DNA from: a virus
Lineage: Duplodnaviria; Heunggongvirae; Uroviricota; Caudoviricetes
Reading direction: 5' to 3' (one strand)
Length of the DNA: 21,890 nucleotides
Virus record (IMG/VR): IMGVR_UViG_2531839180_000003
Span: 1-21,890 of that record
The first letter of the stretch is position 1. Every line of letters starts with the position of its first letter. This document shows, in pieces, positions 1-19,889 of this stretch. Under the pieces are notes generated by a model. The model had not been told where the DNA came from, searched no databases, and saw only the letters and a list, made by a program, of their open reading frames with translations. A program made the position numbers and the translations under genes.

Positions 1-57
1 TGTGTTGTCCTGCATAGCAATGCGCCGTAATACCTTACACCACGGCGCTGATGGTGA

Positions 58-363
58 TTACTCTGGTTCTTTGGTCTTGCGACGCTGGAGTTCTTCGCGT
101 GCAACGGTGACAAGCTGCCCGATTTCTTCCGCTGCTTTGATGCCGATTTGTTCGACCTTAGCCAGGGCATCCAGTGACGACACAAGGGGATTTTCTCCGC
201 TGCCTTCTGCTTGGCGGCGGGCTATTTCTCCGCGCATGGCGGTTACGATAAATCCGGCATTGCTTTCGCCGTCCAGCTTAACGGATTCCATCCCTTGCAT
301 AACATCTAGTGGGACTCTGACAGTTGTCAGTTGTGATTTTGCGTTTTTGTTAGCCGTTGCCAT
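58..363 (-). CDS. putative ribbon-helix-helix (Arc/CopG-like) transcriptional regulator
   Basis: 101-aa ORF. AGGAG Shine-Dalgarno (revcomp of 372-376) lies 8 nt upstream of the ATG. N-terminal strand-helix pattern LTTVRVPLDVMQGMESV resembles RHH folds. Sits back-to-back with the promoter/operator at 425-462. Family assignment is by eye only. Confidence 0.5.
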   Translation of the reverse strand: MATANKNAKSQLTTVRVPLDVMQGMESVKLDGESNAGFIVTAMRGEIARRQAEGSGENPLVSSLDALAKVEQIGIKAAEEIGQLVTVAREELQRRKTKEPE

Positions 364-424
364 TTCTGAAACTCCTAATCATCGGTGTGTTTCAGTATAC
401 ACAAAAAAAGAAATACAAAAAGCC

Positions 425-462
425 TTGACGTGTGTTTCATGCGCTCATAACATGAAACACAC
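425..462 (+). promoter_or_regulatory. sigma70-like promoter overlapped by a 12-bp perfect inverted repeat (operator candidate)
   Basis: -35 TTGACG at 425-430, 17-nt spacer, -10 TAACAT at 448-453. Inverted repeat GTGTGTTTCATG (430-441) / CATGAAACACAC (451-462) with a 9-bp spacer straddles the -10. Confidence 0.5.
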
Positions 463-560
463 CGAAAGGATTGTTGAAATACAAAGAGCAACGCCCCGCA
501 GTGCCGGAAACACATACGGGGCGTCTAACCACCAACGATAACGAGAGTATCGAGGCAGCT

Positions 561-764
561 ATGAGAAATCATACCATACACCCGCGAGGGCGGGATTCGC
601 ACAACCTGAATAAATTCACCTGGCGTTTTATCGCCCTGAGCGCCGCAAAACCGCGTGTGATTACCATCGTGGCCACCAGTGAACAGGAAGCCCGCCAGCA
701 ATCCCCGGCTGGCTGCGTGATGGTGTTCACCGCCCGTATCCGCAAGGAGGTGCGCCATGCCTGA
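561..764 (+). CDS. hypothetical small protein, first gene of rightward operon; start uncertain
   Basis: In-frame part of track ORF 471..764. ATG at 561 is preceded by GAGG. Stop overlaps the start region of the next gene. No recognisable motif. Confidence 0.3.
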   Translation: MRNHTIHPRGRDSHNLNKFTWRFIALSAAKPRVITIVATSEQEARQQSPAGCVMVFTARIRKEVRHA

Positions 765-1077
765 TATGTCAAATTACCAGTACCTGATTAATCCGCATTT
801 TAACTGTGAGCATGATATTGCTAAAAAGGTTTATTCCGCTGCGGATGGGGCTACTGACAATATATCAATGGCTGTTGCGTCAATTGGTAGCCTGATGTGG
901 CATGCGTCAGAAAATGAGGAATATGACGCAAAGGCCATGCGCATTGATATGGGTAATATCGGTTTGTTACTGGCAATGCTTGGACATTTTGATATTTCGT
1001 TACGGTGCACCATTGAAAATGCCACAGATGCATTAAATGCCATAAAGAAAGCGAATACTGATTCAAATCGGGGATAA
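757..1077 (+). CDS. hypothetical protein
   Basis: 106-aa ORF with a strong GGAGG Shine-Dalgarno at 742-746. Same strand and tight spacing with downstream genes. Confidence 0.55.
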   Translation: MPDMSNYQYLINPHFNCEHDIAKKVYSAADGATDNISMAVASIGSLMWHASENEEYDAKAMRIDMGNIGLLLAMLGHFDISLRCTIENATDALNAIKKANTDSNRG

Positions 1078-1083
1078 ATAATC

Positions 1084-1383
1084 ATGAGAACGTATTTATC
1101 TGGCTTGACTGCCAGCGGTTATGCACATCCCAAAATTATCCCCGGCGCTATTTATCGGGATAAGAACGGCAACAGAGTAACAGTAAAATCGATAATGTTT
1201 GACCGTGTGTACTTTATTCGTGATGGCTATTCATTTCATAGCTCGCTGAACGTGGAGATCTTTATTTGCAGATTCCGGCGGGAAATCCCGCCTTCCAGAA
1301 ATAACCATGTGTCACGTGTGGATGTGGATAAAAAACTACAGGAACTGAAAAACATGATTGCCGCGTGGAGAGAGCAGAAATGA
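1084..1383 (+). CDS. hypothetical protein
   Basis: 99-aa ORF with GGGGA upstream of the ATG. Its 3' end overlaps the start of the helicase gene, suggesting translational coupling. Confidence 0.5.
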   Translation: MRTYLSGLTASGYAHPKIIPGAIYRDKNGNRVTVKSIMFDRVYFIRDGYSFHSSLNVEIFICRFRREIPPSRNNHVSRVDVDKKLQELKNMIAAWREQK

Positions 1384-3197
1384 AAAAAGCGCCAAATTTA
1401 AAACACCAACCGCGTGACAAAATGACGGAAGTCATCATTTTTGCGGGTAGTGATGCGTGGGCACATGCGAAGCAGTGGCAGGAACAGGACGGGCGACTGG
1501 CTGGCGATAACGTGCCACCTGTCTGGCTTGGAGAGCAACAACTTGCCGAACTGGACAACCTGCAAATCGTACCAGACGGACGCTATCGCGTGCGTCTCTA
1601 TCAGGCGGGGTTATTGCGTCCGGGACTTGTTAATACCATCGGGCAGAAACTGGCAGCGGCAGGTGTCAGGGATGCTGATTATTACCCTGAAGGAATGCAC
1701 AGCCAGAAACGGGAGAACTGGCGCGAATATCTGGAGCGTGAGCGGGGAGAGCTGGCGGAAAAGAAAAAGGTAGTTGAACTGCCTGTAAAGAAAAAAGAGC
1801 GGGTAAAAGACGATAACGCTTCATCACTGGCGCTTAACCAGATGGGAGCAAGTCAACGCGGCGAAGTTCTCCTGGCACATTATGGTGGTGAACTGGCGAT
1901 TCATGCTGACTCTGACACTGTTCACCATTACAACGGCGTTGTATGGGAGCCGGTTCAGGATAAAGAGTTACAGCGTGCTATGGCGCAGATTTTCATTGAT
2001 GCGGAGATCAGCTATTCACAGAACGCTATTAAATCAGCGGTCGATACCATGAAGTTAAGTTTGCCTGTAATGGGGAATACAGCCCGTAACTTGATTGGAT
2101 TCAGTAACGGGGTATTTGATACCAGAACAGGTAATTTTCGGGAGCATAACAAAAACGACTGGTTGTTAATTGCCAGTGAATTACCGTTCAGCCCACCAGC
2201 AGAGGGGGAAACGCTGGCAACACATGCGCCGAATTTCTGGAAGTGGTTGCACCGTTCGGTGGCTGAGAATGATCGCAAAGCGGATCGTGTACTGGCGGCA
2301 TTATTCATGGTGCTGGCGAACAGATATGACTGGCAGTTATTCATTGAGGTAACTGGTCCTGGTGGAAGCGGTAAAAGCGTAATGGCGGAGATTTGCACCA
2401 TGCTGGCGGGTAAGGCTAATACAGTATCAGCAAGCATGAAGGCGCTGGAAGATGCAAGGGAACGTGCGTTAGTGGTTGGCTTTTCTCTGATTATCATGCC
2501 GGATATGACCCGCTACGCTGGTGATGGGGCAGGGATTAAGGCCATTACAGGCGGTGACAAGGTGGCAATTGACCCGAAACACAAAGCTCCCTACTCAACG
2601 CGTATTCCGGCAGTAGTGCTGGCGGTTAACAATAACGCCATGTCATTCAGTGACCGCAGCGGGGGGATCTCACGTCGTCGGGTGATATTCAATTTTTCGG
2701 AAGTTGTACCGGAGAACGAACGTGATTCGATGCTGGCGGAAAAAATAGAAGGTGAGCTGGCGGTAGTGATTCGCCATCTGCTTACACGGTTTGCTAACCA
2801 GGACGAAGCCAGACGCCTGTTATATGAGCAGCAGAAATCTGAAGAAGCACTGGCGATAAAGCGAGAGGGGGATTCGCTGGTGGACTTCTGCGGCTATCTC
2901 ATGGCGTCGGTAATGTGTGATGGCCTGTTAGTGGGTAATGCTGAAATTGTGCCATTCAGCCCGCGCAGATATCTCTATCATGCCTATCTGGCTTATATGA
3001 GGGCACATGGGTTTGGTAAACCTGTAACACTGACGCGCTTCGGTAAAGATATGCCGGGGGCAATGGCGGAATATGGCAGGGAGTATATGAAACGGAAAAC
3101 GAAGCACGGTTTGCGTTCAAACGTGACACTGACGGAGGAATCAGAAGACTGGATGCCATCATGTGTATCGGTCACTAATGACGATAGCAAAAATTAA
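1380..3197 (+). CDS. P4 alpha-family replication protein (D5/SF3-type helicase domain with Walker A GPGGSGKS)
   Basis: 605 aa from the ATG at 1380 (GGAGAGAG upstream; track ORF begins at 1365). Walker A TGPGGSGKS and Walker B-like LIIMPDM are followed by the motif layout typical of the phage/plasmid primase P4-family C-terminal region. An N-terminal primase active site cannot be confirmed by eye. The TGTTCACC iteron origin lies immediately downstream. Confidence 0.85.
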   Translation: MKKAPNLKHQPRDKMTEVIIFAGSDAWAHAKQWQEQDGRLAGDNVPPVWLGEQQLAELDNLQIVPDGRYRVRLYQAGLLRPGLVNTIGQKLAAAGVRDADYYPEGMHSQKRENWREYLERERGELAEKKKVVELPVKKKERVKDDNASSLALNQMGASQRGEVLLAHYGGELAIHADSDTVHHYNGVVWEPVQDKELQRAMAQIFIDAEISYSQNAIKSAVDTMKLSLPVMGNTARNLIGFSNGVFDTRTGNFREHNKNDWLLIASELPFSPPAEGETLATHAPNFWKWLHRSVAENDRKADRVLAALFMVLANRYDWQLFIEVTGPGGSGKSVMAEICTMLAGKANTVSASMKALEDARERALVVGFSLIIMPDMTRYAGDGAGIKAITGGDKVAIDPKHKAPYSTRIPAVVLAVNNNAMSFSDRSGGISRRRVIFNFSEVVPENERDSMLAEKIEGELAVVIRHLLTRFANQDEARRLLYEQQKSEEALAIKREGDSLVDFCGYLMASVMCDGLLVGNAEIVPFSPRRYLYHAYLAYMRAHGFGKPVTLTRFGKDMPGAMAEYGREYMKRKTKHGLRSNVTLTEESEDWMPSCVSVTNDDSKN

Positions 3198-3211
3198 ACT
3201 TATGGAATAAC

Positions 3212-3432
3212 TGTTCACCACTGTTCACCCTGTCATAAATATCTTTTATATCAGTATATTATAGGGTGAACAGTTATTTATGAACTGTTCACCAAACTAT
3301 TCACTGTTCACCTTTTTGATTGTTTATTGAGCTTCAAGGGTGAACAGTGGTGAACAGTTGGTGAATAGTTTTTGTGAAACTGTTCACCCCTTAACCTTAT
3401 GAATTAAAAGATAAAATATCAAAAGGTGAACA
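3212..3432. repeat. origin of replication: cluster of TGTTCACC iterons
   Basis: Exact TGTTCACC at 3212-3219, 3222-3229, 3286-3293, 3305-3312, 3381-3388. Exact reverse GGTGAACA at 3265-3272, 3339-3346, 3349-3356, 3425-3432. Degenerate copies at 3297-3304, 3360-3367, 3433-3440. An AT-rich spacer at 3232-3263 separates iteron groups. This octamer is the known binding site of P4 alpha in ori and crr. Confidence 0.8.
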
Positions 3433-3518
3433 GGTGAAGGGTTAAAACGCAAAAATTTTAATTTACTGCTGTGAGATAAAGACTATGACAGTAAAGCACA
3501 CAAAAATACGCGCTTGAT

Positions 3519-3719
3519 TTGACGGAACACTGGTTAAGGGTGTCGATAAAAATCATCGACCGCAACGCCGGGGAAGGATATGCGAAAGCACATCCCGAAC
3601 TGATTAGCGCATTCATGACAACGGCAGCTGCAAACTTTGCCACGCTGACAGAACGGGAGATTGCCGAAGCGGAACAGGTGACAACCATCAACGTTAAAAC
3701 CGGAGAGCAGACAGCATGA
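3519..3719 (+). CDS. hypothetical small protein (non-ATG start, uncertain)
   Basis: 66-aa ORF starting at TTG. Its stop overlaps the ssb start as ATGA, suggesting coupling. No clear Shine-Dalgarno. Confidence 0.35.
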   Translation: MTEHWLRVSIKIIDRNAGEGYAKAHPELISAFMTTAAANFATLTEREIAEAEQVTTINVKTGEQTA

Positions 3720-4141
3720 CAGCACAGATAGCGGCTTACGGGCGGCTGGTGGCTGACCCGCAGTTAAAGACCACCAGCAAGGGTACACAAATGACGATGG
3801 CTAGTATGGCGGTCCCCCTTCCGTGCAGCCAGGCAGATGACGGAACGGCGATGATGTGGTTATCCGTCCTGGCGTTTGGCAGACAGGCCGACGCACTGGC
3901 AAAACACCACAAAGGCGAACTGGTGAGCGTGGCGGGTAACATGCAGGTAAGCCAGTGGACAGGCCAGAACGGCGAAACGCGGCAGGGCTGGCAGGTTATC
4001 GCAGACAGCGTGATCAGTGCGCGAACAGCGCGTCCGGGCGGCAAAAAAGGCCAGCAGGGGCAGGCCACTGACGCACTGAACAGGGCAAAACAGCAGACGG
4101 GTCAGCACGATGATCCGTACGGGGACAACATACCGTTTTAG
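3716..4141 (+). CDS. ssb: single-stranded DNA-binding protein (SSB)
   Basis: 141 aa. OB-fold-like N-terminus (IAAYGRLVADPQL...), Gly/Gln-rich linker and C-terminal ...DDPYGDNIPF resembling the canonical SSB acidic tip DDDIPF. GGAGAG Shine-Dalgarno upstream. Confidence 0.8.
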   Translation: MTAQIAAYGRLVADPQLKTTSKGTQMTMASMAVPLPCSQADDGTAMMWLSVLAFGRQADALAKHHKGELVSVAGNMQVSQWTGQNGETRQGWQVIADSVISARTARPGGKKGQQGQATDALNRAKQQTGQHDDPYGDNIPF

Positions 4142-4163
4142 CGACAACAGAGGGGACATTCCA

Positions 4164-4406
4164 GTGACATTTGAAGAAGTCCAGCAACATAAAAAGTTTC
4201 ATGATTTTGATGATCTGGAAACCATGACAGCAAAAAAATATCGCCGTCTGCTTTCTTCCGATGCGTTGTTTGTTGTGGATCATCATGATTTTCTGCGTAG
4301 CTCACTGACCGGGGAAATTTTCGCAACCAACCGTGAGCAGGTGGAAGCGATGATCGAATATCTGTGGAAAATAAGGCGCAGAATGCGAGATCCCGTGAAA
4401 CGGTAA
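4164..4406 (+). CDS. hypothetical protein (start ambiguous between ATG 4110 and GTG 4164)
   Basis: Track ORF 4110..4406. The ATG at 4110 overlaps ssb by 32 nt. The in-frame GTG at 4164 is preceded by GAGGGGA. Followed by the terminator at 4415-4443. Confidence 0.4.
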   Translation: MTFEEVQQHKKFHDFDDLETMTAKKYRRLLSSDALFVVDHHDFLRSSLTGEIFATNREQVEAMIEYLWKIRRRMRDPVKR

Positions 4407-4414
4407 AATAATAA

Positions 4415-4443
4415 AGGCCTGGTAAAATCCAGGCCATTTTTTT
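4415..4443. terminator. bidirectional rho-independent terminator between convergent genes
   Basis: Stem AGGCCTGG (4415-4422) / CCAGGCCA (4429-4436), loop TAAAAT, then a T-run to 4443. The upstream A-run gives a U-tract on the opposite strand. Confidence 0.7.
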
Positions 4444-4948
4444 ACAGTAAGCCTATTAGGGCACTTGCGCCAGCCCCAACAATGCTGGCAACGGTACTGT
4501 TTTCCAGTAACTGCTTTAATACTGATTTGGCTTGTACATCCCCCGATTTAGCGACTTTTTCAACCAGTTCAGTGATGCTGATGTTTACCAGCATATGGTT
4601 ATGCTCACCTATCTGCACTTGATCACCACTAATTGAACCAATGTTAAATGTATTACTTTTAGTTGGCGTCATATGTTCATTTCCCGTGATATTTTCAATA
4701 TAGAGAGTCAACATATTTGGATGATTGGTTCCCTGTCTGCGGGTTCCATTGGGAAGCAACTTCATATCTATAATTTTTAGATTTATCTCGTTTTTACCGA
4801 CACGCTGGATAATGTGTTGACCAATAGTTACTTCCGGTTCATTTGTATATGGAATTAATACCTTGTTTTCTTTTGCGTTTCTTTTACCTCTGAATGATTC
4901 GCCATTAATTATGAAAGTATCAGGATATACCATTGCGCTTAAATTCAT
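4442..4948 (-). CDS. hypothetical AT-rich protein with short hydrophobic C-terminal tail (accessory gene candidate)
   Basis: 168-aa ORF and the only minus-strand gene inside the 363-11547 plus-strand block. AAAGGA Shine-Dalgarno upstream. Possible -10 TATTAT / -35 TTTACA on the minus strand at 4980-5010. C-terminus STVASIVGAGASALIGLL. No recognisable family. Confidence 0.65.
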   Translation of the reverse strand: MNLSAMVYPDTFIINGESFRGKRNAKENKVLIPYTNEPEVTIGQHIIQRVGKNEINLKIIDMKLLPNGTRRQGTNHPNMLTLYIENITGNEHMTPTKSNTFNIGSISGDQVQIGEHNHMLVNISITELVEKVAKSGDVQAKSVLKQLLENSTVASIVGAGASALIGLL

Positions 4949-5234
4949 GATGCGTCCTTTGTTGTAGTCAGAGACAGCAATAATAGGCCATGGTTTACTT
5001 CTTTTGTAAATTATTTGTTCGTGTTCTTTCGTGGTTGTTCGGTCTGACTGACAGGTGTTTACATACTGATTTTTATGTATATGTTGGAGCGTGGCACTCA
5101 GACGTGAGCCGCCACAATGCCGCCTGACCCCCTGCGCGATGCCGGGTTGATCTGCGAGATGCCGAGAGTGTCGGGCGGCGCTCCCCCCGTGTTGGTTTCA
5201 CGTCCTGAATCTTAACCAATACGAGAAAACCTTC

Positions 5235-6404
5235 ATGAAGAAATTAATCGAACTCCGCCAGCAAAAAAACGCCCTGAAAAACCAGATGCGATCCCTGCTG
5301 GAAAAAGCCGACAGTGAAAACCGTAGTCTGAACGCTGAAGAAGGCAAACAGTTTGATGAACTGCGTGCAAAAGCTGATGCCCTCGACACAGAAATTTCCC
5401 GCCTCGAGTCTGTGGCTGATGAAGAACGCAGCAAGCCAGGAACGGGCATCCAGAAATTATCATCTGATGAATTGCGTAACTACATCGTAACCGGAGATGT
5501 GCGATCACTGTCCACCAGCACTGACAGCGGCAGGGATGGCGGATATACCGTAATTCCTGAGCTTGATCGCGAAGTCATGCGCCAGCTACAGGATGACAGT
5601 GTTATGCGCGTGATCGCGACCGTGAAGACCGCAAAATCAAATGAGTTTCAGAAACTGGTTTCCACTGGCGGCGCAACTGTAGGACGAGGCACAGAAGGCA
5701 GCGCACGCAGTGAAACCAACACCCCGAAAATTGAACGCGTAACCATCAAGTTGAATCCGATCTACGCCTACCCGAAAACCACGCAGGAAATCCTGGATTT
5801 TTCAGAGGTGGATATTCTGGGCTGGTTATCCTCCGAAATTGCCGACACGTTCGCCAGCACCGAAGAGGATGATTTTGTTAATGGCGACGGTAACGGCAAG
5901 CCGAAAGGCTTCATGGCTTACACCCGTGCGGCGACCAGTGACAAAACCCGCGCTTTTGGCACCATTGAAAAAATAGTAGCGGCAAGTGGAACCGCCATTA
6001 CAGCGGACGAACTGATCGACATTCTCTACAAGCTGAAAGCGAAATACCGCAAAAATGCCGTCTGGGTGATGAACTCGGGCACGGCAGGGACACTACAGAA
6101 GCTGAAAAATGAGAACGGCGATTATATCTGGCGCGACAGCCTTAAAGAAGGTGCGCCGGATATGTTGCTTGGTCGTCCTGTTTACTGCCTGGAGTCCATG
6201 CCGGACATCGGCGCAGGAAAAGCACCGCTAGCGGTTGGCGATTTCAGTCGTGGTTATTTCATCGTTGATCATGTAACAGGGATTCGCACCCGACCGGACA
6301 ACATTACTGAACCCGGATTCTACAAGGTCCACACGGATAAATATCTGGGCGGTGGTGTGGTGGATTCAAACGCCATCAAAATTCTGGAAATGAAAGCTGG
6401 CTAG
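5235..6404 (+). CDS. HK97-family major capsid protein with N-terminal coiled-coil delta domain
   Basis: 389 aa. Coiled-coil N-terminus (LRQQKNALKNQMRSLLEKA...), then capsid body with the NGDGNGKPKG motif matching HK97 gp5 NGDGTG and a conserved C-terminal region. Confidence 0.9.
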   Translation: MKKLIELRQQKNALKNQMRSLLEKADSENRSLNAEEGKQFDELRAKADALDTEISRLESVADEERSKPGTGIQKLSSDELRNYIVTGDVRSLSTSTDSGRDGGYTVIPELDREVMRQLQDDSVMRVIATVKTAKSNEFQKLVSTGGATVGRGTEGSARSETNTPKIERVTIKLNPIYAYPKTTQEILDFSEVDILGWLSSEIADTFASTEEDDFVNGDGNGKPKGFMAYTRAATSDKTRAFGTIEKIVAASGTAITADELIDILYKLKAKYRKNAVWVMNSGTAGTLQKLKNENGDYIWRDSLKEGAPDMLLGRPVYCLESMPDIGAGKAPLAVGDFSRGYFIVDHVTGIRTRPDNITEPGFYKVHTDKYLGGGVVDSNAIKILEMKAG

Positions 6405-6416
6405 TCATGAGTAAGG

Positions 6417-6438
6417 AGGAGGCTGCGGCCTCCTTTTT
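6417..6438 (+). terminator. intrinsic terminator or attenuator immediately after the major capsid gene
   Basis: Stem AGGAGGC (6417-6423) / GCCTCCT (6428-6434), loop TGCG, then TTTT (6435-6438), 13 nt after the capsid stop codon. Confidence 0.55.
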
Positions 6439-6458
6439 CAGCTTTATGGAGTACACCG

Positions 6459-7019
6459 ATGAAAAACACCGATTTTGAAATCCGCACATCTGAACTGACC
6501 GCCAGCAATAAAAAGCTGGTGGGGTATGCCGTTCGCTGGAACAGCCTTTCAGAAATTATCTGGGACGAATTCCGCGAACAGTTCACGCCGGGGGCTTTTG
6601 CTGACTATCTGGCGACGGGTAATGATGTGCGCTGCCTGTATGAGCATGACTATACCCAACTGCTGGGGCGCACCAAATCCGGCACTCTGGTACTGACTGA
6701 GGATAACACCGGGTTACGTTTTGAACTGACACCGCCGGATACCCAGCTTGGAAAAGATGTGCTTACGCTGGTGGAGCGTGGCGACATTACAGGAATGAGC
6801 TTTGGTTTTCGCGCATTATGCGAGGAGTGGAGTATCGCGCAAAAACCGTATCTGCGTACCGTAACCGCCGCTGAACTCCGTGAAATCACAATAACGTCGA
6901 TGCCTGCTTATCCAGAATCTGGCGTGGAGATTGCCCACCGTTCGTTGTTTGCACAGCACCCTGAATTACGTCCGACAGGAAATAATCGTCATCGCTGGTC
7001 TGAGCTGGCGGGGTTGTGA
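6459..7019 (+). CDS. HK97-family prohead protease
   Basis: 186 aa with GGAG Shine-Dalgarno. Motifs such as GMSFGF and the overall pattern fit the prohead serine protease (S78) family. Position is adjacent to capsid and portal. Confidence 0.8.
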   Translation: MKNTDFEIRTSELTASNKKLVGYAVRWNSLSEIIWDEFREQFTPGAFADYLATGNDVRCLYEHDYTQLLGRTKSGTLVLTEDNTGLRFELTPPDTQLGKDVLTLVERGDITGMSFGFRALCEEWSIAQKPYLRTVTAAELREITITSMPAYPESGVEIAHRSLFAQHPELRPTGNNRHRWSELAGL

Positions 7020-7020
7020 T

Positions 7021-8235
7021 ATGTGGTGGCCTTTTAGTCGTAAAAAAAGCGAGCAGCGTAACCTGTCCATTGATGATTTTCTGGCGCTGTCCGGCGTACC
7101 GAATACCGGATCCGGAGAATATGTTTCTGCTGGGACGGCTGAATCATTGCCTGCAGTGATGAATGCGGTTTCTGTCATCGCTGAGGCGGTGGCCACGATG
7201 CCGTGTTATCTGTATCTGGTACGTAATGACAAGGGCAGGGAGGCGCGGGAATGGCTGGACAGTCACCCGGTAGATATTCTGCTGAATGAGCAGCCTAATT
7301 CGTGCCAGACACCTTACCAGTTTAAACGCACAATGATGCGTCACTGCCTGCTGAACGGTAACGCCTATGCGGTTATTGAGTGGGGGCAGGACGGGCAGCC
7401 AAAATCACTTCATCCTTATGCGCCGAGGTGTGTTGTACCGGAACGCACAGGCGCACACAAATACCGCTATACCATCACCGAACCCTGTACAGGAACGGTG
7501 CGCACGTATTTACAGGAAGAAGTTTTGCATCTCCGCTATGCCTCGGATGATGGCTTTCTGGGGCGTTCCCCCGTCACGATTTGCCGTGAGGCGCTGGGGC
7601 TTGGCCTTGCTCAACAGCGTCACGGAGCCAGCATTATGAAAGATGGCATGATGGCGGCAGGGATTATCACGTCAGGCGAATGGCTGGACGGCGTGAAAGG
7701 TAAACAGGCATTGGATGCTCTGGAACGCTACAAGGGGGCGAAAAATGCCGGAAAAACGCCAATCCTTGAAGGGGGCATGGATTACAGGCAACTGGGAATG
7801 AGTAACCAGGATGCGGAATGGCTGGCCTCCCGTCGCTTCTCCATTGAAGACATCGCCCGCATGTTCAACGTATCGCCTATTTTTCTGCAGGAATACAGCA
7901 ACAGCACCTACAGCAATTTCAGCGAGGCAAGCCGCGCGTTTCTGACCATGACAATGCGCCCGTGGCTGGCGAACTTCGAACAGCAAATCAAGGCCGCTTT
8001 GCTGGTGGCTTCTCCCGTACCTGGTACCCGTTATCTGGTTGAGTTTGATTCAGCCGATTTATTACGCGCCACACCCACCGAACGTTATGCCACGTATGAG
8101 AAAGGGATTAAGAACGGGATCATGAATCCGAACGAAGCCCGTGAGCGTGAGGGTATGCCGCCGCGTGAAGGTGGTGATGAGTTCAGCCAGGCATGGAAAC
8201 AGACTGTGGAAATTAAAGGGAGAAAAGATGAGTGA
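7021..8235 (+). CDS. HK97-family portal protein
   Basis: 404 aa from the ATG at 7021, directly after the protease stop (track ORF extends to 6931). Portal-like C-terminal region ...NPNEAREREGMPP. Confidence 0.85.
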   Translation: MWWPFSRKKSEQRNLSIDDFLALSGVPNTGSGEYVSAGTAESLPAVMNAVSVIAEAVATMPCYLYLVRNDKGREAREWLDSHPVDILLNEQPNSCQTPYQFKRTMMRHCLLNGNAYAVIEWGQDGQPKSLHPYAPRCVVPERTGAHKYRYTITEPCTGTVRTYLQEEVLHLRYASDDGFLGRSPVTICREALGLGLAQQRHGASIMKDGMMAAGIITSGEWLDGVKGKQALDALERYKGAKNAGKTPILEGGMDYRQLGMSNQDAEWLASRRFSIEDIARMFNVSPIFLQEYSNSTYSNFSEASRAFLTMTMRPWLANFEQQIKAALLVASPVPGTRYLVEFDSADLLRATPTERYATYEKGIKNGIMNPNEAREREGMPPREGGDEFSQAWKQTVEIKGRKDE

Positions 8236-8530
8236 AGCCAGAATTACACCTGATGAAGTCAGGGCACATCTTCGACTTGATGATGATTTATCCGGTGAAG
8301 GCGAACTTCTGAAAATGTATACCGATGCGGCGCTGGAAGCCTGCCAGAAGCATATCGGGAAACGTTTTGAAGACGGGCTGGAATTTACCCCGGCAATGCG
8401 TGTTGGTTGCCTGATGTACATCGCTTTCCTGTACGAGAACCGGGAAGCGGTTTCACCAGTGGAGCACTCGGAACTGCCTATGGCTATTTCTGCGCTCTGG
8501 TCAGTTTATCGTGACGTAGGGGTGTACTGA
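8228..8530 (+). CDS. gp6-like head-tail connector (head completion) protein
   Basis: 100 aa from the ATG at 8228, overlapping the portal stop as ATGAGTGA, with AGGGAG Shine-Dalgarno. Pattern RAHLRLDDD...AALEA...FLYENRE is typical of phage gp6-like connectors. Confidence 0.7.
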   Translation: MSEARITPDEVRAHLRLDDDLSGEGELLKMYTDAALEACQKHIGKRFEDGLEFTPAMRVGCLMYIAFLYENREAVSPVEHSELPMAISALWSVYRDVGVY

Positions 8531-8970
8531 TGCCGTGGCAACCATTAAGGCGATGCACTGAGCCTGGCTGTAATAAGCGCGTGAAGTCCGGCAAGTGTGA
8601 AGAGCACAGGCGGGCTGCATGGCGTGCAGAGGATGCCAGACGGGGACACCGCCGCGCGCGCGGGTATTCCCGACAGTGGGACAAATACCGCGCCCTGTAC
8701 CTGAGCAAAAACCCGTTATGCGTGCGTTGTCTGGCTAAGGGGATTTATACGCCAGCTCTTGTGGTGGATCACATCATTCCCATCAATGGCGGCGGTGATG
8801 TTCTCTTCTGGCCTGAGTGGAATCACCAGGCATTGTGCCAGACGTGCCACAACCGTAAGACGACACGAGAAGATCCAGCCACGAAAGCAAACCGTAAAGC
8901 GGGCATGTATCGCGAGCAGGAAGAACGGGCGGCACACCGTAACGACTGGATGTATGGCGATGATGACTGA
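8530..8970 (+). CDS. phage-associated HNH endonuclease
   Basis: 146 aa. Cys pairs (CTEPGC, CVRC, CQTCHNRK) and VDHIIP...N...H fit an HNH zinc-binding nuclease. Start overlaps the connector stop as TGATG. Lies upstream of terS as in HK97-type cos phages. Confidence 0.85.
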   Translation: MPWQPLRRCTEPGCNKRVKSGKCEEHRRAAWRAEDARRGHRRARGYSRQWDKYRALYLSKNPLCVRCLAKGIYTPALVVDHIIPINGGGDVLFWPEWNHQALCQTCHNRKTTREDPATKANRKAGMYREQEERAAHRNDWMYGDDD

Positions 8971-9258
8971 ACAGGAGCAAACCAGGCTGATACGTGGACT
9001 GATAAGGCAGCGTGACACATGGAAGACACAGGAGACAGAGCACAAAGCCAACAGGACTGGGCGCACAAAACGCACCACAGCGAAGCGATTAACCGACCGT
9101 GACCGCGAGGTCATGGAATGTTTTCGCAATCGCTGGTGAGGCCGTCAGAGGGGGTGGGGGTGGTTTTCAGGACGAAACCGTCCCTGCCGGACACCGACCG
9201 CCCCCTCAAATTTTTGTGCACGGTAATTTTTTTGAAAATAATTGGGCGAAAAAAGAAC

Positions 9259-9615
9259 ATGGCAAGACCACCAAAAGCCCCCGCTTACCTGGATGAAATC
9301 GCGGTCAGGCAGTGGAAGGAAAAATCGCGCCAGCTTTCCGGGCGGGAAGACCTTACCCCCGCCGACTGGAGCAATCTGGAACTGTATTGCGTTAACTACT
9401 CTATATACCGCAAAGCCGTCGAAGACCTTGCGACGCGCGGGTTCAGCATTGTTAACAGTCAGGGCAGCGAGAGCAGAAACCCCGCACTGAGCGCAAAGGC
9501 TGACGCAGAAAGAATAATGATCAAAATGGCTTCTTTGCTGGGTTTTGACCCGGTAAGCCGTCGCAGAAATCCACCGGAAACAGAGGAAGAGGACGAACTT
9601 GACCGCCTGGCATGA
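9259..9615 (+). CDS. terS: terminase small subunit (P27-family-like)
   Basis: 118 aa from the ATG at 9259; the track ORF from 9118 has a low-complexity N-terminal extension that is probably non-coding. MARPPKAP...LDE...W...LELYC pattern and position directly upstream of terL. Confidence 0.7.
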   Translation: MARPPKAPAYLDEIAVRQWKEKSRQLSGREDLTPADWSNLELYCVNYSIYRKAVEDLATRGFSIVNSQGSESRNPALSAKADAERIMIKMASLLGFDPVSRRRNPPETEEEDELDRLA

Positions 9616-11260
9616 GTACGCAGAAGGCGTAAAAAACGGCAAAATTACGGCCTGTAAACGACTGAAACAGGCTGTTAAACGGTATTTTTCTGACCTTGAA
9701 AACTCCCTTTACACGTTCGATCCGGAGGTCGTGGAGCGGTTTATTGCCTTTTCCCGGGTGTGCCCGCACGTAAAAGGCGCAATGCGCGGTAGCCCCATTG
9801 AACTTGAGCCGTGGCAGCAGTTCGCCTTTGCCTGCATCCTGGGATTTAAGGTTAAGGCCACCGGACGGCGCAAATACACCAGCGCATTCATTGAAGTACC
9901 GCGAAAAAATGCCAAATCCACGGTCGCCGCTATCCTGGCTAACTGGTTTCTGGTTATGGAAAACGGGCAGCAGGATATTTACACCGCCGCCGTGAGTCGT
10001 GATCAGGCGCGGATCGTGTTTGATGATGCGCGTCAGATGTGCCTTTTATCCCGACCGTTACGAAAGCGGGTAAATATTCAGGCGCACAAGGTGATACACC
10101 CGAAAACCAACAGCCTGTTAAAGCCACTGGCAGCAAAAGCGGCAACCATTGAGGGGACAAACCCGAGTCTTGCCATTGTGGATGAATATCACCTGCACCC
10201 AGACAACGGGGTTTATTCCGCACTTGAACTGGGGATGGGGGCGCGTCCGGAGGGGCTGTTATTTGCCATCACCACATCGGGGAGCAACGTTGTTTCAGCC
10301 TGTAAACAACACTACGACTATTGCTGCCAGATACTGGATGGTGAAGAGGTGAACGAATCCATGTTCGTACTGATTTACGAGCTGGATGATGAAAGCGAGG
10401 TTGACGATCCGGCGATGTGGATAAAGGCGAATCCCAATATCGATGTTTCCGTCGATCGTGAAAAACTGGCCTCAACCATCCAGAAAGCGCGGGGTATTCC
10501 GTCGCAGTGGGTGGAAATGCTCACCAAGCGATTCAATATCTGGTGTCAGGGGGCTACGCCGTGGATGGGTAACGGTGCATGGGCGGAGTGCGCCGGAACG
10601 TTCGCTGAGGCGGATTTATACGGGCAGGAGTGCTATGCGGGGCTGGACTTATCATCAACCAGCGATATTTCCAGCGTGTGCTATGCCTTTCCGGTCGGTA
10701 AAAAGATTATGCTGGTTTCACGTCACTATCTACCGGAATTTCAGCTACAGAACCCTGCCAATAAAAACCGCGCCATCTATCGCCAGTGGGCAAAGGCGGG
10801 CTGGATACGCACAACACCGGGTGACTGCATTGATTATGACCGTATCCGTGATGACATCATGGCGGATGCAGAGAATTTCAATATCAGGCTGGTGGGTTTC
10901 GATACATGGAACGCCACGCACCTGAGGACGCAGCTACAGGGAGCGGGATTTGAGGTGGAGCCGTTCCCGCAAACGTACCTTCGTTTTAGTCCGGCGGCGA
11001 AATCGTTCGAAGTTTTTGTTAACCGGAAGGTGATTGTTCATCGTGGTGATCCGGTGCTGGCCTGGTCAATGAGTAATGTTGTGATGCAGAGTGACGCGAA
11101 CGCCAATATCAAGCCGAACAAGAAAAAATCATCCAATAAGATAGACCCGAGCGTTGCGGCGCTGATGGCGTTTGGCACATTCCAGGCTGAGCATGAGGAA
11201 TTTGCATTTGATATGAGCGACAGCCAGAAAGAGCGACTTGCGGCATTTGATGGGGTATGA
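9599..11260 (+). CDS. terL: terminase large subunit
   Basis: 553 aa from a TTG start at 9599, preceded by GAGGAAGAGGA, overlapping terS by 17 nt. ATPase N-terminal domain and nuclease C-terminal domain pattern typical of Terminase_1-type large subunits. Confidence 0.9.
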   Translation: MTAWHEYAEGVKNGKITACKRLKQAVKRYFSDLENSLYTFDPEVVERFIAFSRVCPHVKGAMRGSPIELEPWQQFAFACILGFKVKATGRRKYTSAFIEVPRKNAKSTVAAILANWFLVMENGQQDIYTAAVSRDQARIVFDDARQMCLLSRPLRKRVNIQAHKVIHPKTNSLLKPLAAKAATIEGTNPSLAIVDEYHLHPDNGVYSALELGMGARPEGLLFAITTSGSNVVSACKQHYDYCCQILDGEEVNESMFVLIYELDDESEVDDPAMWIKANPNIDVSVDREKLASTIQKARGIPSQWVEMLTKRFNIWCQGATPWMGNGAWAECAGTFAEADLYGQECYAGLDLSSTSDISSVCYAFPVGKKIMLVSRHYLPEFQLQNPANKNRAIYRQWAKAGWIRTTPGDCIDYDRIRDDIMADAENFNIRLVGFDTWNATHLRTQLQGAGFEVEPFPQTYLRFSPAAKSFEVFVNRKVIVHRGDPVLAWSMSNVVMQSDANANIKPNKKKSSNKIDPSVAALMAFGTFQAEHEEFAFDMSDSQKERLAAFDGV

Positions 11261-11265
11261 CGAGA

Positions 11266-11547
11266 ATGACTGAAACTGATCTACTAAAAATAATTCGCCG
11301 CATTACCGGAATCAGTCAGCAGCCTGACGAACAGGCTACACAGCCGGACAGCGTGATAGCCGAAAATTACGCGCGTGTGGTGGCTGAGGTAATGCGCCGT
11401 GACGGTATTGAGCTTAACGGCGTGGATATGCGCAACATACGAACCAGAGTTCTTGAGTTGCTGGCATACCGTCGCCGTTCTCAACAACGGAGGGAGAGCG
11501 CGAAAAATACTTACCAGTGGAGGAAGCCGGAGCACTTACGGCGGTAA
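11266..11547 (+). CDS. hypothetical protein
   Basis: 93 aa from the second in-frame ATG just after the terL stop. No recognisable motif. Confidence 0.4.
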   Translation: MTETDLLKIIRRITGISQQPDEQATQPDSVIAENYARVVAEVMRRDGIELNGVDMRNIRTRVLELLAYRRRSQQRRESAKNTYQWRKPEHLRR

Positions 11548-11564
11548 CTGGTTGATATTACCGA

Positions 11565-11773
11565 AAGTGCAAAAATGCACTTAGCAACTGGTGGCGAGTT
11601 GCAGATCTGCAACTCGACTATGAAACTACCCGTAGTTTGGGTAGTAAGAGTAACACCCAGATTTTGGGGCTTACTCGCGATACCCAAATAAAGGGTATCG
11701 GTGTAAGAAATATCGTTTCTCATATGTGAGCACCGAGGGCGGAATTCCGCCTTCGGTTACTTATTGTGCTCAT
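11565..11773. repeat. array of five inverted repeats including a 22-bp perfect palindrome
   Basis: Hairpin AAGTGCA/TGCACTT (11565-11582). Perfect palindrome CGAGTTGCAGATCTGCAACTCG (11595-11616). CTACCC/GGGTAG (11627-11644). CGATACCC/GGGTATCG (11678-11700). Nested hairpin 11726-11773 with core CCGAGGGCGG-AATT-CCGCCTTCGG (11733-11756). Confidence 0.6.
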
Positions 11774-12152
11774 GCACAGGGAGGGGCGGGTCAAATCTCT
11801 GTACCCTGACGTCTTCCGGACTGCCAGCCCCATCGATTTTTTATACCCGCGAAAAATGAAAAACGCTTCACGCTGGTGGGCCTGATGCCGATATGGTGAG
11901 CCACATACCGGAAATATCCACCAGCACGGCAACGGCAGAATAGCCACAACACAGAAAACCCACGAATATGGGGTTTTTGTTATGGCATGGTCATGATGAC
12001 CGCCCCTGCTCTGAATGGTGGAAATCACCACGCAGATCATCCACCAGCTTCATGACGGATAGCCGGAAAATGATAACGGTTACGCAAAACCCCCAGCAAA
12101 TTTCCCTTTTGTTTGTTATTGTTCGTCGTTGTTCGTAGAGCTTCAACGAAAT

Positions 12153-12176
12153 GTGTGGTCAGTTGTGTGGTCAGTT
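12153..12176. repeat. tandem direct repeat TGTGTGGTCAGT x2 upstream of int
   Basis: Exact 12-mer at 12153-12164 and 12165-12176. Also GTTCGT x2 at 12121-12136. Located 190-250 bp upstream of the integrase start. Confidence 0.6.
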
Positions 12177-12368
12177 TTGAGGCTTTTAATTTATGCATTC
12201 TTAAAAACTTATTTATTATCAATTACTAACAGGAATTAGTAAGAAATACCCGTATTACCTGATCTGGATAATGCCAGCGTAGTCCTGGCGATTATTCAAG
12301 ATAAAATCAAAGACTTATCTGCGATTTTCGAACCGTTTTGTTTAGCCGATCACATCGAGGCTCACAAA

Positions 12369-13727
12369 ATGGGACACCAGACCATACGCCACACCATTAA
12401 ACGTAACGGGGTTTATTACGTTCGTTTCCGCCTGCCTGATAATAAGTTTTTCCGTAAGTCGTTAGAGACTGACAGCCACACCCAGGCGCAGTTGCTCATG
12501 TCTTTTGCTTCTCCTGTAATTCCTCTGGTTCAACGTGGAGCTATCCAACCGGATCACTTCGGTAAGCGTCTTTCTGAGTATGGCAATAGTCTGAAGCAGC
12601 AGAATGAACAATGGCTGGCGCACCAATTTCTGAATGATGCGCGGCGCAATATTCAGCCGATAGTTGTTCATGAAGACCGCGAGGTTGTCTCTCCTTCGGT
12701 AGATGAGGAAGAACAAACTGAAGCACAACCAGAACACGTGTTAACACTGGCTGGCGCGTGGAATATGTATAAAGAGGAGAAAGCCCAAAACTGGACGAAG
12801 GCTATCTCTCAAGCCAATGAGCGCTTTATGGAGGTGATGTTGATTGTCTTGGGTTCATCAACTGATGTAACCACGATTACCAAGCAAGACATTAAACAGG
12901 TAATGGAGGTTGTTGAAAACTTGCCTAAGCGTGTTGTGCAGCCTTATCGGTCAATGACGGTTCAGCAACTGATCGAGTGTGATGATGTTCCGCCAGAAGA
13001 TTTGGTTGGCGCTGAGTCTATCCACAAGCATTTGAAGATTTACAAATCGCTGTTTAAAACCTTCCTGACAGACAATAAAGATATTCTGGAGAAGTCTCCG
13101 ACTGATGGGATCGTCGCCGCACCGTCGAAAACGAGGTTTGGAGCATACAGTGCAGCAGAAATGAGAAAGTTTGTGGGGTGGGCGCTCAGGCAGCCTGACG
13201 GTTGGCAGAAGTGGATCACTCTTTTGTTGGCGTACACGGGAGCCAGAAGAGGCGAGATCGCAAAGCTGGAAAAATCTCATATCAAATATGATGAGGATAG
13301 TCAGCGGCACTATCTCCTTATCGCGGAAGGAGGACAGGGGAAAACTGAGAACGCGACTAGACAGGTTGTAATACATCCCAAACTGATCGAATGGGGATTC
13401 CTTGATTTTGTAAACCGCCAATGGAAAGAGAAAATATTCTCGCCTGTGTCGGGTAAGAACATGCCGAAGATCGGCAAAGTTTTAGCAGATGTGCGTGATC
13501 AGCTTGGTATTCCTTATCTTGATGACTATGGGCAGCGGCGATTGGTGCATAGCTTCCGACATACCATGATTTCAACCTGTTTAGCTGGCTGGGTTGGCAA
13601 CTTAGCGCACTTGCAGCAGGTTGTAGGGCATGAGAAAAGCGGGGCAGGGATCACTAGAAGATACTTACACATTTTTCCTCTGAAAACTGTGTGTTACGTC
13701 ATTGATGGATTGTGTTGGAATGGCTAA
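12369..13727 (+). CDS. int: tyrosine recombinase (phage integrase family)
   Basis: 452 aa with GAGG Shine-Dalgarno. Catalytic signature elements TGARRGE (Arg I), HSFRHT (HxxR box II) and GHEKSGAGITRRYLH (His...Tyr). Confidence 0.85.
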   Translation: MGHQTIRHTIKRNGVYYVRFRLPDNKFFRKSLETDSHTQAQLLMSFASPVIPLVQRGAIQPDHFGKRLSEYGNSLKQQNEQWLAHQFLNDARRNIQPIVVHEDREVVSPSVDEEEQTEAQPEHVLTLAGAWNMYKEEKAQNWTKAISQANERFMEVMLIVLGSSTDVTTITKQDIKQVMEVVENLPKRVVQPYRSMTVQQLIECDDVPPEDLVGAESIHKHLKIYKSLFKTFLTDNKDILEKSPTDGIVAAPSKTRFGAYSAAEMRKFVGWALRQPDGWQKWITLLLAYTGARRGEIAKLEKSHIKYDEDSQRHYLLIAEGGQGKTENATRQVVIHPKLIEWGFLDFVNRQWKEKIFSPVSGKNMPKIGKVLADVRDQLGIPYLDDYGQRRLVHSFRHTMISTCLAGWVGNLAHLQQVVGHEKSGAGITRRYLHIFPLKTVCYVIDGLCWNG

Positions 13728-13837
13728 TAATTTGGGTGATGTCATAGTTTTACTGAATTTTCAGTGATATAAATCATGTAAAAATAAGGTGTTCTACGTA
13801 AGGCTATTTTTCTATACACAGCTAGCATAAAGGATTA

Positions 13838-15286: not shown

Positions 15287-15291
15287 AGAAA

Positions 15292-15320
15292 AAGGCGAGC
15301 CCTTTGGCTCGCCTTTTAAT
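15292..15320. terminator. bidirectional rho-independent terminator between convergent genes
   Basis: Stem AAGGCGAGCC (15292-15301) / GGCTCGCCTT (15306-15315), loop CTTT, then TTTTAAT. The upstream A-run gives a U-tract for the minus strand. Confidence 0.75.
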
Positions 15321-15321
15321 A

Positions 15322-15513
15322 TTAATTTAATAACTTGCGCTTTTTAGATAATAGCACACTTAAAGCATATTCAAACCCGTGTTGCGCCTCTAGACGGCAT
15401 AGGGTGATATTACAGATCCCCAACTCCTTACACAGCGCCTTTCGGTTAATTACCTCCGCCGCGCCAGATACATAGACTTGACCAGCGCCGGGGATATTGA
15501 TTGAAACTTTCAT
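15322..15513 (-). CDS. hypothetical small protein, possibly a truncated head-module gene
   Basis: 63-aa ORF with GAGGT Shine-Dalgarno. Lies directly downstream of the E-like capsid gene and abuts the terminator and the AT-rich int/ATPase segment. Confidence 0.4.
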   Translation of the reverse strand: MKVSINIPGAGQVYVSGAAEVINRKALCKELGICNITLCRLEAQHGFEYALSVLLSKKRKLLN

Positions 15514-15603
15514 GTGTTACCTCAGTGTAAAAGTAAAAATGAATATAACCGGAAGATATAACCCCCAGCCGTACCGGAAGGGCGCGACCGGGGGAAATGT
15601 GCA

Positions 15604-16632: not shown

Positions 16633-16634
16633 TA

Positions 16635-16994
16635 TTAAGCCTCCATGCTGTTGTTATTGCCAATACGAATAGAACCATCTGCCGTTAGTCGCTTGATTGC
16701 TTCTTTCAGGGAGGCGGCATCTTTGGCGCGGAGGTTGAACGTGTTCATATATGCCAATCTGTCAACCACAACGATTGTCTTATTGTCGCCTGCGGAGACA
16801 TCTACCAGACAGATCAGAGGGGAGCCCTCGACAGCCTGATCGAACAATTCGTAGGTTTCAGCATTGAATACATCGCCACAGAATAGATCCGCTGGGACAG
16901 TGGCCCCTTTGATCTCGGTGCGGGAGAAGAGGTCGGAGGCGCTGTTAACCAGCACATCTGACATTCGTTTAGGGAACGACTCAGAAGTACGCAT
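16635..16994 (-). CDS. putative head decoration protein (lambda gpD-like position)
   Basis: 119 aa from the internal ATG at 16994 with AAGGAAA Shine-Dalgarno; the track N-terminal extension is low complexity. Sits immediately upstream of the gpE-like gene with a 2-nt gap. Similarity to gpD itself is not evident by eye. Confidence 0.45.
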   Translation of the reverse strand: MRTSESFPKRMSDVLVNSASDLFSRTEIKGATVPADLFCGDVFNAETYELFDQAVEGSPLICLVDVSAGDNKTIVVVDRLAYMNTFNLRAKDAASLKEAIKRLTADGSIRIGNNNSMEA

Positions 16995-18790: not shown

Positions 18791-18864
18791 AGATACCGTG
18801 ATGAGGTGGGTGGTTTGATATAAAAATCCCCATCATAATATAACGCACCTAACCGGAGAATGCA

Positions 18865-19880: not shown

Positions 19881-19889
19881 GGGGGTTTT

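Follow-up and report, generated by a model that had tools for sequence, protein, structure and literature searches.

Capsid-first gene order and a stem-loop behind the capsid gene in the packaging operon of a proteobacterial capsid-forming PICI

The head genes of HK97-like phages are arranged in the order portal, protease, and capsid. The locus studied here belongs to a stretch of viral DNA of 21,890 nucleotides (hereafter referred to as the window) and reads, on the plus strand, capsid, protease, portal, connector, HNH, TerS, and TerL, with a hairpin and a run of T residues located between the capsid and the protease genes. This raises the question of whether the arrangement is exceptional, as proposed in the first-pass annotation, and whether the hairpin could set a high capsid and a low protease and portal expression by transcriptional polarity.

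Identity of the island and anatomy of its operon

The genes for head formation and packaging in this region form an operon that belongs to a capsid-forming PICI (cf-PICI) of the proteobacterial type. These PICIs are a known type of phage satellite, whose members are induced by a helper phage, form small T = 4 capsids, and employ the tails of the helper. A RefSeq locus identical to the window features the same coordinates for the capsid, protease, and portal genes and encodes an integrase, an HTH regulator, and a primase, but neither tail nor lysis genes. The integrase and HTH regulator genes are located just left of the window, as seen in a locus of 99.98% identity, and a primase/D5-type helicase and an SSB are encoded inside the window (Pfam). 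The right attachment repeat (attR, 12109–12184, no strand assigned) is 95% identical to a repeat lying directly upstream of the integrase gene in strain 90-9280 (locus L001, 1211–1288), both copies being approximately 76–78 bp long. These direct repeats delimit an island of about 15 kb, which is within the cf-PICI range of approximately 10–18 kb. Tail or lysis genes were neither annotated between the attachment repeats nor detected by Pfam among the ORFs tested, and all proteins on which the cf-PICI assignment is based had Pfam matches above the curated cut-offs. A bidirectional terminator-like hairpin (4416–4435, listed on both strands in the consensus scan), together with an accessory ORF on the minus strand (4442–4948, ORF list and RefSeq locus), sets the packaging operon apart from the genes on the replication side.

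The operon starts with the gene for the major capsid protein of the HK97 fold family (5235–6404; PF05065, E = 1.9e-71; RefSeq), followed by the prohead serine protease (S78) gene (6459–7019; Peptidase_S78, PF04586, E = 6e-46) and the portal protein gene (7021–8235; PF04860, E = 1.1e-92), which starts 1 nt past the protease stop. Genes encoding a gp6-like head-tail adaptor/connector (Ad1, 8228–8530; PF05135, phrog_40), an HNH endonuclease (8530–8970; Pfam), the small terminase TerS of the P27 family (9259–9615; Pfam and RefSeq), the large terminase TerL (9599–11260; Pfam), and a conserved 96-aa protein of unknown function (11257–11547; phrog_1561) complete the series, all of them being encoded on the plus strand. 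The strongest terminator-like site of the scanned region (11732–11757, plus strand, consensus scan), featuring an 11-bp stem with 8 GC pairs, is the probable end point of the operon. Real intergenic gaps within the operon were limited to two, namely the capsid–protease gap of 54 nt and the gap between HNH and TerS, since all other junctions overlap or abut. By analogy to the phiP27 record, where cos is annotated between HNH and TerS, the latter gap is likely the cos region.

Upstream of the capsid gene, sequence comparison revealed a conserved box, TTTTGTAAATTATTTGTTC (5001–5020, plus strand), which is common to cf-PICIs of the Enterobacterales and of some Pasteurellaceae and may represent a regulator-binding site. 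It is followed by a weak sigma-70-like promoter deduced from consensus matching only (TTTACA, 16 nt, TATGTT; 5058–5085, plus strand), in a scanned region where promoter-like sites were not enriched over shuffled sequences. Its -10 element lies within a conserved block, and its predicted start is placed at the foot of hairpin P1. The latter belongs to a structured 5' leader of the capsid gene (5091–5234, plus strand), composed of P1 (5091–5115), the long and variable P2 (5119–5179), and P3 (approximately 5188–5223), with an alternative pairing of 5101–5107 with 5198–5204. The leader is conserved and features compensatory base changes. When the phage collection was searched with the leader by blastn, only cf-PICI records deposited as phages were matched. 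An Rfam scan of the whole window (E ≤ 1) provided no match at the leader or at the post-capsid hairpin. The sole matches obtained were weak microRNA-like ones at 3215–3437 and two others far below threshold elsewhere.

Gene order in cf-PICIs and in related phages

To place the gene order, the locus was compared with published cf-PICIs, other genomes, and IMG/VR contigs. The published description of cf-PICIs, in which HK106 served as a helper phage, gives the family norm as "capsid-protease-portal-head connectors, then hnh-terS-terL". The capsid-first order was found in all 83 genome loci (Enterobacterales, Pasteurellaceae, and Orbaceae) and in all 55 IMG/VR contigs with a capsid identity of at least 59%, that is, in 138 out of 138 family loci. 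Portal–protease–capsid was detected in all 25 IMG/VR relatives with capsid identities of at most 41%, and also in SfI, phiP27, ST64B, D14E, and HK97. No capsid relatives were found between these two identity levels, and on the basis of this gap (59% versus 41%) the capsid encoded in the window is assigned to the cf-PICI clade, separate from the phage capsids. Hence, the head-gene order is indeed inverted relative to HK97-like phages, as the first-pass annotation had stated, but it is the norm of the family and not an unusual solution. Capsid–protease–portal is the fixed order of proteobacterial cf-PICIs, which was already known; the finding holds, but is for the most part unremarkable. The suggestion of a lineage signature is right for the gene order, whereas for the hairpin it does not, because a hairpin is also present in 25 of the 28 phage relatives (see below).

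The prototype of the proteobacterial cf-PICIs is EcCIEDL933 (CP-933C/O-island 51; Alqurainy et al., bioRxiv 10.1101/2022.09.08.507074; He et al., bioRxiv 10.1101/2025.02.11.637232). It shares the order from capsid to TerL, including the trailing small ORF, with the window, is of similar length (14.93 kb versus approximately 15 kb), and encodes a capsid protein that is 63–64% identical to the one in the window. Its capsid stop is followed by a hairpin in the same place, with an unrelated stem sequence. Differences concern the integration site (next to phoQ in EcCIEDL933, rcnR/thiM for the window island), a head-closure gene between portal and connector that the window island does not have, a PerC-like gene instead of the minus-strand accessory ORF before the operon, and the leader sequence.

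The nearest true phages according to their capsids are SfI, SfII, SfIV, ST64B, phiP27, and Pseudomonas D14E (34–37% identity). Similar to the window, they feature the HNH/P27-type terminase module and a strong GC hairpin directly past the capsid gene; in contrast to it, they possess the canonical order, mostly T-less hairpins, and full sets of tail and lysis genes. HK97 (NC_002167) is more distant, its capsid being only 16% identical to that of the window in the alignment. Its genes belong to the same protein families, but its synteny (terS-terL-portal-protease-capsid-adaptor) is not matched by the window. In HK97, a "putative terminator" is annotated after gp5 (5192–5213), namely the hairpin GGGCGGG-GAAA-CCCGCCC-TTTT starting a few bases past the capsid stop, which precedes the adaptor and tail genes and not, as in the window, protease and portal. 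A second putative terminator of HK97 is located after its portal gene and, if efficient, would oppose capsid expression. Firmicutes cf-PICIs, which are of independent origin, likewise encode their own capsid and packaging proteins and do not have tail genes; unlike the window, they keep portal–protease–capsid, or their operon opens with hnh-terS-terL.

The stem-loop behind the capsid gene

Sequence inspection, folding, and junction comparison confirmed the place of the hairpin and T-run reported at 6417–6438. The core stem AGGAGGC (6417–6423) is separated by the loop TGCG from its 3' arm GCCTCCT (6428–6434), which is followed by a run of five T residues (6434–6438). This core of 7 bp, which includes 5 GC pairs and encloses a loop of 4 nt, can be extended to 11 pairs (6413–6438, plus strand; dG -16.6 kcal/mol for the 11-bp form), so that the stem-loop with its U-tract begins 9 nt past the capsid stop, within the capsid–protease gap. 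Four of the five T residues are able to pair with the upstream AAGG. The consensus terminator scan did not list 6413–6438, because its G-T extension rule takes the T-run into the stem; given this omission, the site was checked by hand and by folding. Taken alone, the fold of the window sequence is weakly above chance (z = -1.87; 8 of 200 shuffled sequences fold as well). The Shine–Dalgarno sequence GGAG of the protease gene (6448–6451, plus strand, 7 nt before the ATG) lies outside the hairpin and is conserved in the sequence alignment. An ORF of 23 codons overlapping the hairpin (6407–6478) was rejected, as the relatives have unrelated sequence without a start codon at this position.

Comparison with relatives provided strong evidence for the element. 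Of 73 distinct capsid–protease junctions from genomes, 69 carried a hairpin, and these hairpins comprised 30 different arm pairs. Inclusion of IMG/VR brought the count to 101 of 108 distinct cf-PICI junctions. Perfect hairpins with dG ≤ -9 occurred in 57 of 65 capsid–protease junctions, compared to a background of 0.55 per kb in the remainder of these operons. The seven junctions without a hairpin, with gaps down to 8–21 nt, indicate that the element is dispensable. Covariation analyses (MAFFT alignment and CM-based alignment, model R1) gave scores about equal to those of slid controls, the GGG/CCC core hardly varying and the loop lengths being different. The case for the hairpin is thus based on its positional conservation and on the unrelated stems in distant relatives.

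When a stable stem-loop beginning no more than approximately 30 nt past the capsid stop was scored, the element was also present in 25 of the 28 canonically ordered phage relatives, HK97 among them, and on this comparison the post-capsid hairpin is not lineage-specific. In most of the phage relatives, it contains a stable tetraloop (ttcg, tccg, or tacg) and lies, mostly without a T-tract, ahead of connector genes. Runs of at least three T were present in 81 of 101 cf-PICI hairpins (two or fewer in the other 20) versus 7 of 25 phage hairpins (p = 1.5e-4, a statistic that ignores shared ancestry). In cf-PICIs, the 8 nt past the GC core contain 4.9 T on average versus 1.9 expected from local composition, i.e., approximately 2.5 times as many. 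The tract length varies from 0 to 8 T. Many Xenorhabdus cf-PICIs have only CCCCTTTCC past the stem, and the members from Pasteurellaceae have 6–8 T, as in canonical terminators. Judged by these tracts, the cf-PICI hairpins do look more terminator-like than the phage ones.

Possible functions of the stem-loop and significance

The stem-loop appears to be an RNA element travelling with HK97-type capsid genes, which carries a U-tract in cf-PICIs. We consider it slightly better than an even bet (probability of approximately 0.55) that, in a packaging operon of fixed order, this capsid-linked hairpin works as a leaky intrinsic terminator and/or shields the 3' side from exonucleases. In both cases, the mRNA of the capsid cistron would exceed that of the downstream genes. 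Capsid would be favored over both protease and portal because the cf-PICI order places the two genes behind the hairpin. About 240 capsid subunits are needed per 12-subunit portal, and 240 copies of the major capsid protein were described for the EcCIEDL933 capsid. It is plausible that transcriptional polarity sets the capsid-to-portal ratio. The richer T-tracts of cf-PICIs compared to phage relatives support this mechanism modestly, whereas it is weakened by the very variable T-tracts and by the hairpin-less members. Moreover, the mostly T-less phage hairpins ahead of connector genes argue against an ancestral role in termination adjusted to the protease and portal genes.

A precedent is known from phage T7, where the leaky intrinsic terminator T-phi, located directly past gene 10 (major capsid), enriches capsid mRNA over that of downstream genes. 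This function was demonstrated experimentally for a different polymerase and phage family, whereas for the window a corresponding function is what we infer.

Possibly, though this appears rather unlikely to us, the hairpin is an mRNA stability element only, which does not terminate transcription but blocks 3'-to-5' exonucleases after endonucleolytic cleavage, so that the capsid portion of the polycistronic transcript would persist longer than the remainder. The capsid cistron would then be bracketed at both ends by protective structures, with P1 (5091–5115) as the 5' hairpin beginning at the start predicted by the promoter-like site. The stable tetraloops without T-tracts in most phage relatives, the Xenorhabdus members, and the higher conservation of the hairpin relative to the T-tract among cf-PICIs are all consistent with such a role, but the excess of T past the cf-PICI stems and the canonical tracts of the Pasteurellaceae members argue against it. 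Neither the hairpin nor the order would have a role in stoichiometry if translation initiation and translational coupling set the ratios, with the order being a frozen accident of module assembly and the hairpin a relic. The protease has its own Shine–Dalgarno sequence, the portal gene abuts the protease stop, comparable ratios are achieved in HK97-like phages, whose head genes run portal–protease–capsid, Firmicutes cf-PICIs retain that order, and seven family junctions are devoid of the hairpin. We nevertheless regard this explanation as quite improbable, since the order is invariant in all family loci, with capsids down to approximately 59% identity to that of the window, the hairpin keeps its position in nearly all junctions despite changing arms and loops, and the gene order would match a descending copy number. 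Finally, a perfect short palindrome within a non-coding gap could act as DNA, namely as a protein-binding site, a cos/pac element, or a recombination site. This is highly improbable, because pairing is maintained among members despite differences in arm sequence and loop length and the T-tract is confined to one strand; a cos site beside the capsid gene was rejected given the phiP27 annotation.

Public data and literature were consulted with regard to the leaky terminator and/or exonuclease barrier. In RNA-seq data of EDL933 (Table S4, PMC4048457), capsid, protease, and portal reached RPKM values of 0–4 in all conditions; the operon was silent, and nothing can be learned from it on read-through. 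A ciprofloxacin study (PMC11125564) mentioned CP-933C only in passing. The words promoter, terminator, and hairpin do not occur in Alqurainy et al. and He et al., and literature searches on terminators downstream of capsid genes yielded nothing beyond general papers on phage genomes.

A more far-reaching proposal, which is speculative and in our view unlikely, is that the enterobacterial cf-PICI capsid cistron represents a self-contained cassette, comprising the undescribed leader P1–P2–P3, in which GACGUGA would take part in two exclusive pairings, and the leaky terminator, with the remaining genes following by descending copy number. The capsid-to-portal ratio of approximately 20:1 would then be set at the RNA level in a lineage-specific manner not used by the phage relatives.

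For the family, the capsid-first order represents a clean and easily scored marker, which split proteobacterial cf-PICIs from HK97-like phages in every locus examined and is useful for annotation because several cf-PICIs are labelled as phages in GenBank. If the polarity mechanism is true, it would explain why proteobacterial cf-PICIs re-ordered their head genes, and the hairpin or its U-tract would offer a simple handle to tune the capsid-to-portal ratio when satellite particles are engineered. For studies of how helper phages switch on capsid production of cf-PICIs, the more promising lead is the 5' leader.

The cf-PICI island and its packaging operon

The chromosome of E. coli O114:H49 strain 90-9280 is 99.98% identical to positions 1–12,282 of the window and carries the operon genes within an island flanked by rcnR and thiM, which also harbors an integrase, an HTH regulator, an Icd-like gene, a primase, and an SSB gene; no tail or lysis genes were found between rcnR and thiM. 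This island of approximately 15 kb is bounded by a direct repeat of about 76–78 bp (window 12,109–12,184, with its counterpart immediately before the integrase gene), and represents a capsid-forming PICI (cf-PICI), a phage satellite with its own capsid and packaging genes. The non-coding stretch at 3215–3437, between the primase gene and a small ORF preceding the SSB gene, yielded several weak microRNA-like Rfam matches on both strands, indicating a region rich in hairpins that could be a replication origin. Beyond attR, the sequence (12,282–21,890) diverges from strain 90-9280 and features a second integrase (12,369–13,727) and an OLD/AriA-like AAA ATPase without the Toprim part (13,838–15,286; PADLOC Old, E = 1.5e-45), with several ORFs lacking a family match and HTH proteins downstream. 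This region resembles a second, tandem island at that site, which may be a defence island.

The packaging operon, as deduced from the ORF list and a Pfam scan of the window, lies on the plus strand and encodes the capsid protein (5235–6404, PF05065), prohead protease (6459–7019, Peptidase_S78), portal (7021–8235, PF04860), a gp6-like adaptor (8228–8530), HNH (8530–8970), a P27-type TerS (ending at 9615), TerL (9599–11,260), and a 96-aa product (11,257–11,547). Its genes overlap or abut everywhere except at the HNH–TerS junction and at the capsid–protease junction, where a gap of 54 nt contains the hairpin AAGGAGGAGGC-TGCG-GCCTCCTTTTT (6413–6438), with a 7-bp core stem at 6417–6434 followed by five T. 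The ORF list, Pfam matches, and junction sequence thus bear out, coordinates included, the head-gene order and post-capsid hairpin reported by the first-pass annotation.

Head-gene order in cf-PICIs and phages

The capsid-first order was found in all 83 genome loci retrieved with the capsid protein as query (Enterobacterales, Pasteurellaceae, and Orbaceae), as far as each contig extends, and in 55 out of 55 IMG/VR contigs with a capsid identity of ≥59%. In contrast, all 25 IMG/VR contigs with a capsid identity of ≤41% showed the order (TerL-)portal–protease–capsid, no contig falling between 41% and 59%, and the same canonical order was present in the nearest true phages SfI, phiP27, ST64B, and Pseudomonas D14E, as well as in HK97. 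The order is therefore inverted relative to phages and is a signature of the lineage, as had been suspected from the sequence. Its proposed novelty did not hold, since capsid–protease–portal–head connectors, followed by hnh–terS–terL, is the published standard arrangement of the described family (Alqurainy et al., bioRxiv 10.1101/2022.09.08.507074).

The connector genes are swapped as well: head closure precedes the adaptor in EDL933-type cf-PICIs (e.g., locus L002, 10,176–10,807), whereas the adaptor precedes head closure in phage ST64B (phage order at locus L086, 5777–6501). The window island encodes only the adaptor (8228–8530) and has no head-closure gene. The cf-PICI order of capsid, protease, portal, connectors, and enzymes appears to match descending copy number in the particle; in the capsid of the proteobacterial prototype EcCIEDL933, 240 MCP positions and a portal in place of one penton set the required ratio.

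Four GenBank records named as phages encode capsids 61–77% identical to that of the window, namely Klebsiella phage P12620-1 (PQ569648.1), Salmonella phage S.Kent 1-2-1 (OR850982.1), vB_KppS-Ant (LR881103.1), and Pasteurella phage Pmp8 (OR544139.1). Two of them are of satellite size (~15–16.5 kb), and all four are probably cf-PICIs or assemblies containing one. In a Xenorhabdus kozodoii contig (L035), two cf-PICI capsid modules are separated by about 1.9 kb that include a run of N, so that they are tandem elements or else an artefact of the assembly.

Putative promoter and leader of the capsid gene

Upstream of the operon, a 168-aa ORF on the minus strand (4442–4948; phrog_5789, unknown function) matched neither Pfam nor PADLOC entries and occupies the variable slot in which He et al. 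expect immune systems (bioRxiv 10.1101/2025.02.11.637232). Together with a bidirectional terminator-like hairpin at 4416–4435, this ORF parts the operon from the replication genes, so that an own operon promoter is needed. A weak sigma-70-like site is located at 5058–5085, its −10 element within a conserved block. The box TTTTGTAAATTATTTGTTC (5001–5020), upstream of this promoter region, is kept in Enterobacterales and some Pasteurellaceae cf-PICIs (L056, L071, and L079) and is a candidate regulator-binding site.

Between the promoter-like site and the capsid ATG, a conserved structured leader (~5089–5234 in the window) was detected in 53 out of 136 family loci, mostly from Enterobacterales. 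Its first hairpin, P1 (5091–5115), is paired in 100% of cells with compensatory double changes at three pairs; P2 is long and variable, with many compensations in the pairs at its base; and P3 adjoins the start codon. An alternative pairing of GACGUGA within P1 (5101–5107) with UCACGUC (5198–5204) is formed in 97% of cells, and one position co-varies with both alternative partners, although this is confined to five sequences from one clade. The EcCIEDL933 leader shows the same layout with other sequences (CCAG-GACG-CUGG; GUCCUGG...CCAGGAC). The leader had no Rfam match and, in phage genomes, no match beyond cf-PICI records. It may be a switch that acts on the translation or stability of the capsid mRNA. 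The presence of the leader suggests that the capsid cistron is flanked by structures on either side.

The post-capsid hairpin and the polarity proposal

A perfect hairpin within the gap (dG ≤ −7 kcal/mol) was present in 69 of the 73 distinct capsid–protease junctions from genomes, with 30 different arm pairs, and in 101 out of 108 cf-PICI junctions when IMG/VR was included. Hairpins with dG ≤ −9 occurred in 57/65 junctions, compared to a density of 0.55 per kb in the remainder of these operons. The commonest stem is AGGGGC/GCCCCT with loops of 3–8 nt, the window having GGAGGC/GCCUCC and EcCIEDL933 AAGGGGCU/AGCCCCUU; in covariation tests the GGG/CCC core was almost invariant, and slid controls scored alike. 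In Testudinibacter aquarius (L038), a 264-aa ORF (7232–8026) with a below-threshold likeness to lambda tail assembly protein I (E = 0.0013) is inserted between the hairpin and the protease gene.

A strong GC stem-loop also directly follows the capsid stop codon in the canonical-order phages SfI, ST64B, phiP27, and D14E, as well as in 19 out of 23 phage-like IMG/VR junctions (25/28 phage relatives combined), and the HK97 GenBank record lists a "putative terminator" right after gp5 (5192–5213; GGGCGGG-GAAA-CCCGCCC-TTTT). The hairpin therefore travels with the capsid gene: it commonly accompanies capsid genes of the HK97 type and is not satellite-specific, and the cf-PICI rearrangement altered only what lies behind it.

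Whether the hairpin attenuates transcription, as the first-pass annotation supposed, was addressed by means of the T-tracts. Behind the GC core, T-runs of ≥3 were found in 81 and of ≥4 in 57 of the 101 cf-PICI hairpins, and the following 8 nt contain on average 4.9 T compared to 1.9 expected from local composition, with 6–8 T after the stem in Pasteurellaceae. In phage relatives, only 7 out of 25 hairpins have runs of ≥3, and the T count averages 3.4 (Mann–Whitney p = 1.5e-4, a test that ignores shared ancestry, cf-PICIs being one clade). These values lend modest support to an attenuator in cf-PICIs. Against it counts that in many members, above all those from Xenorhabdus, the stem is followed only by CCCCTTTCC, and that the portal gene of HK97 likewise has a putative terminator behind it; efficient termination at sites of this kind would be counterproductive. 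The phage data fit a barrier against 3' decay at least as well. Promoters, terminators, and hairpins are unmentioned in the two main cf-PICI papers (10.1101/2022.09.08.507074; 10.1101/2025.02.11.637232). In the EDL933 RNA-seq atlas, the capsid (Z1847), protease (Z1848), and portal (Z1849) genes of EcCIEDL933 (CP-933C/O-island 51) showed RPKM values of 0–4 in all conditions (PMC4048457, Table S4); in the absence of a helper the operon stays silent, and the data are hence uninformative on read-through. Beside it, Z1846, just upstream of Z1847, reached RPKM values of 8–154 in all conditions (PMC4048457).

That order and hairpin together would set stoichiometry by polarity is a reasonable proposal with modest comparative support. 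The seven junctions without a hairpin all originate from Xenorhabdus, Photorhabdus, or related contigs (including L026, L033, L048, L066, L114, and L119), with gaps down to 8–21 nt. Because of these, the hairpin is to be regarded as common but dispensable, and the hairpin-less cf-PICIs represent natural controls for any hairpin function.
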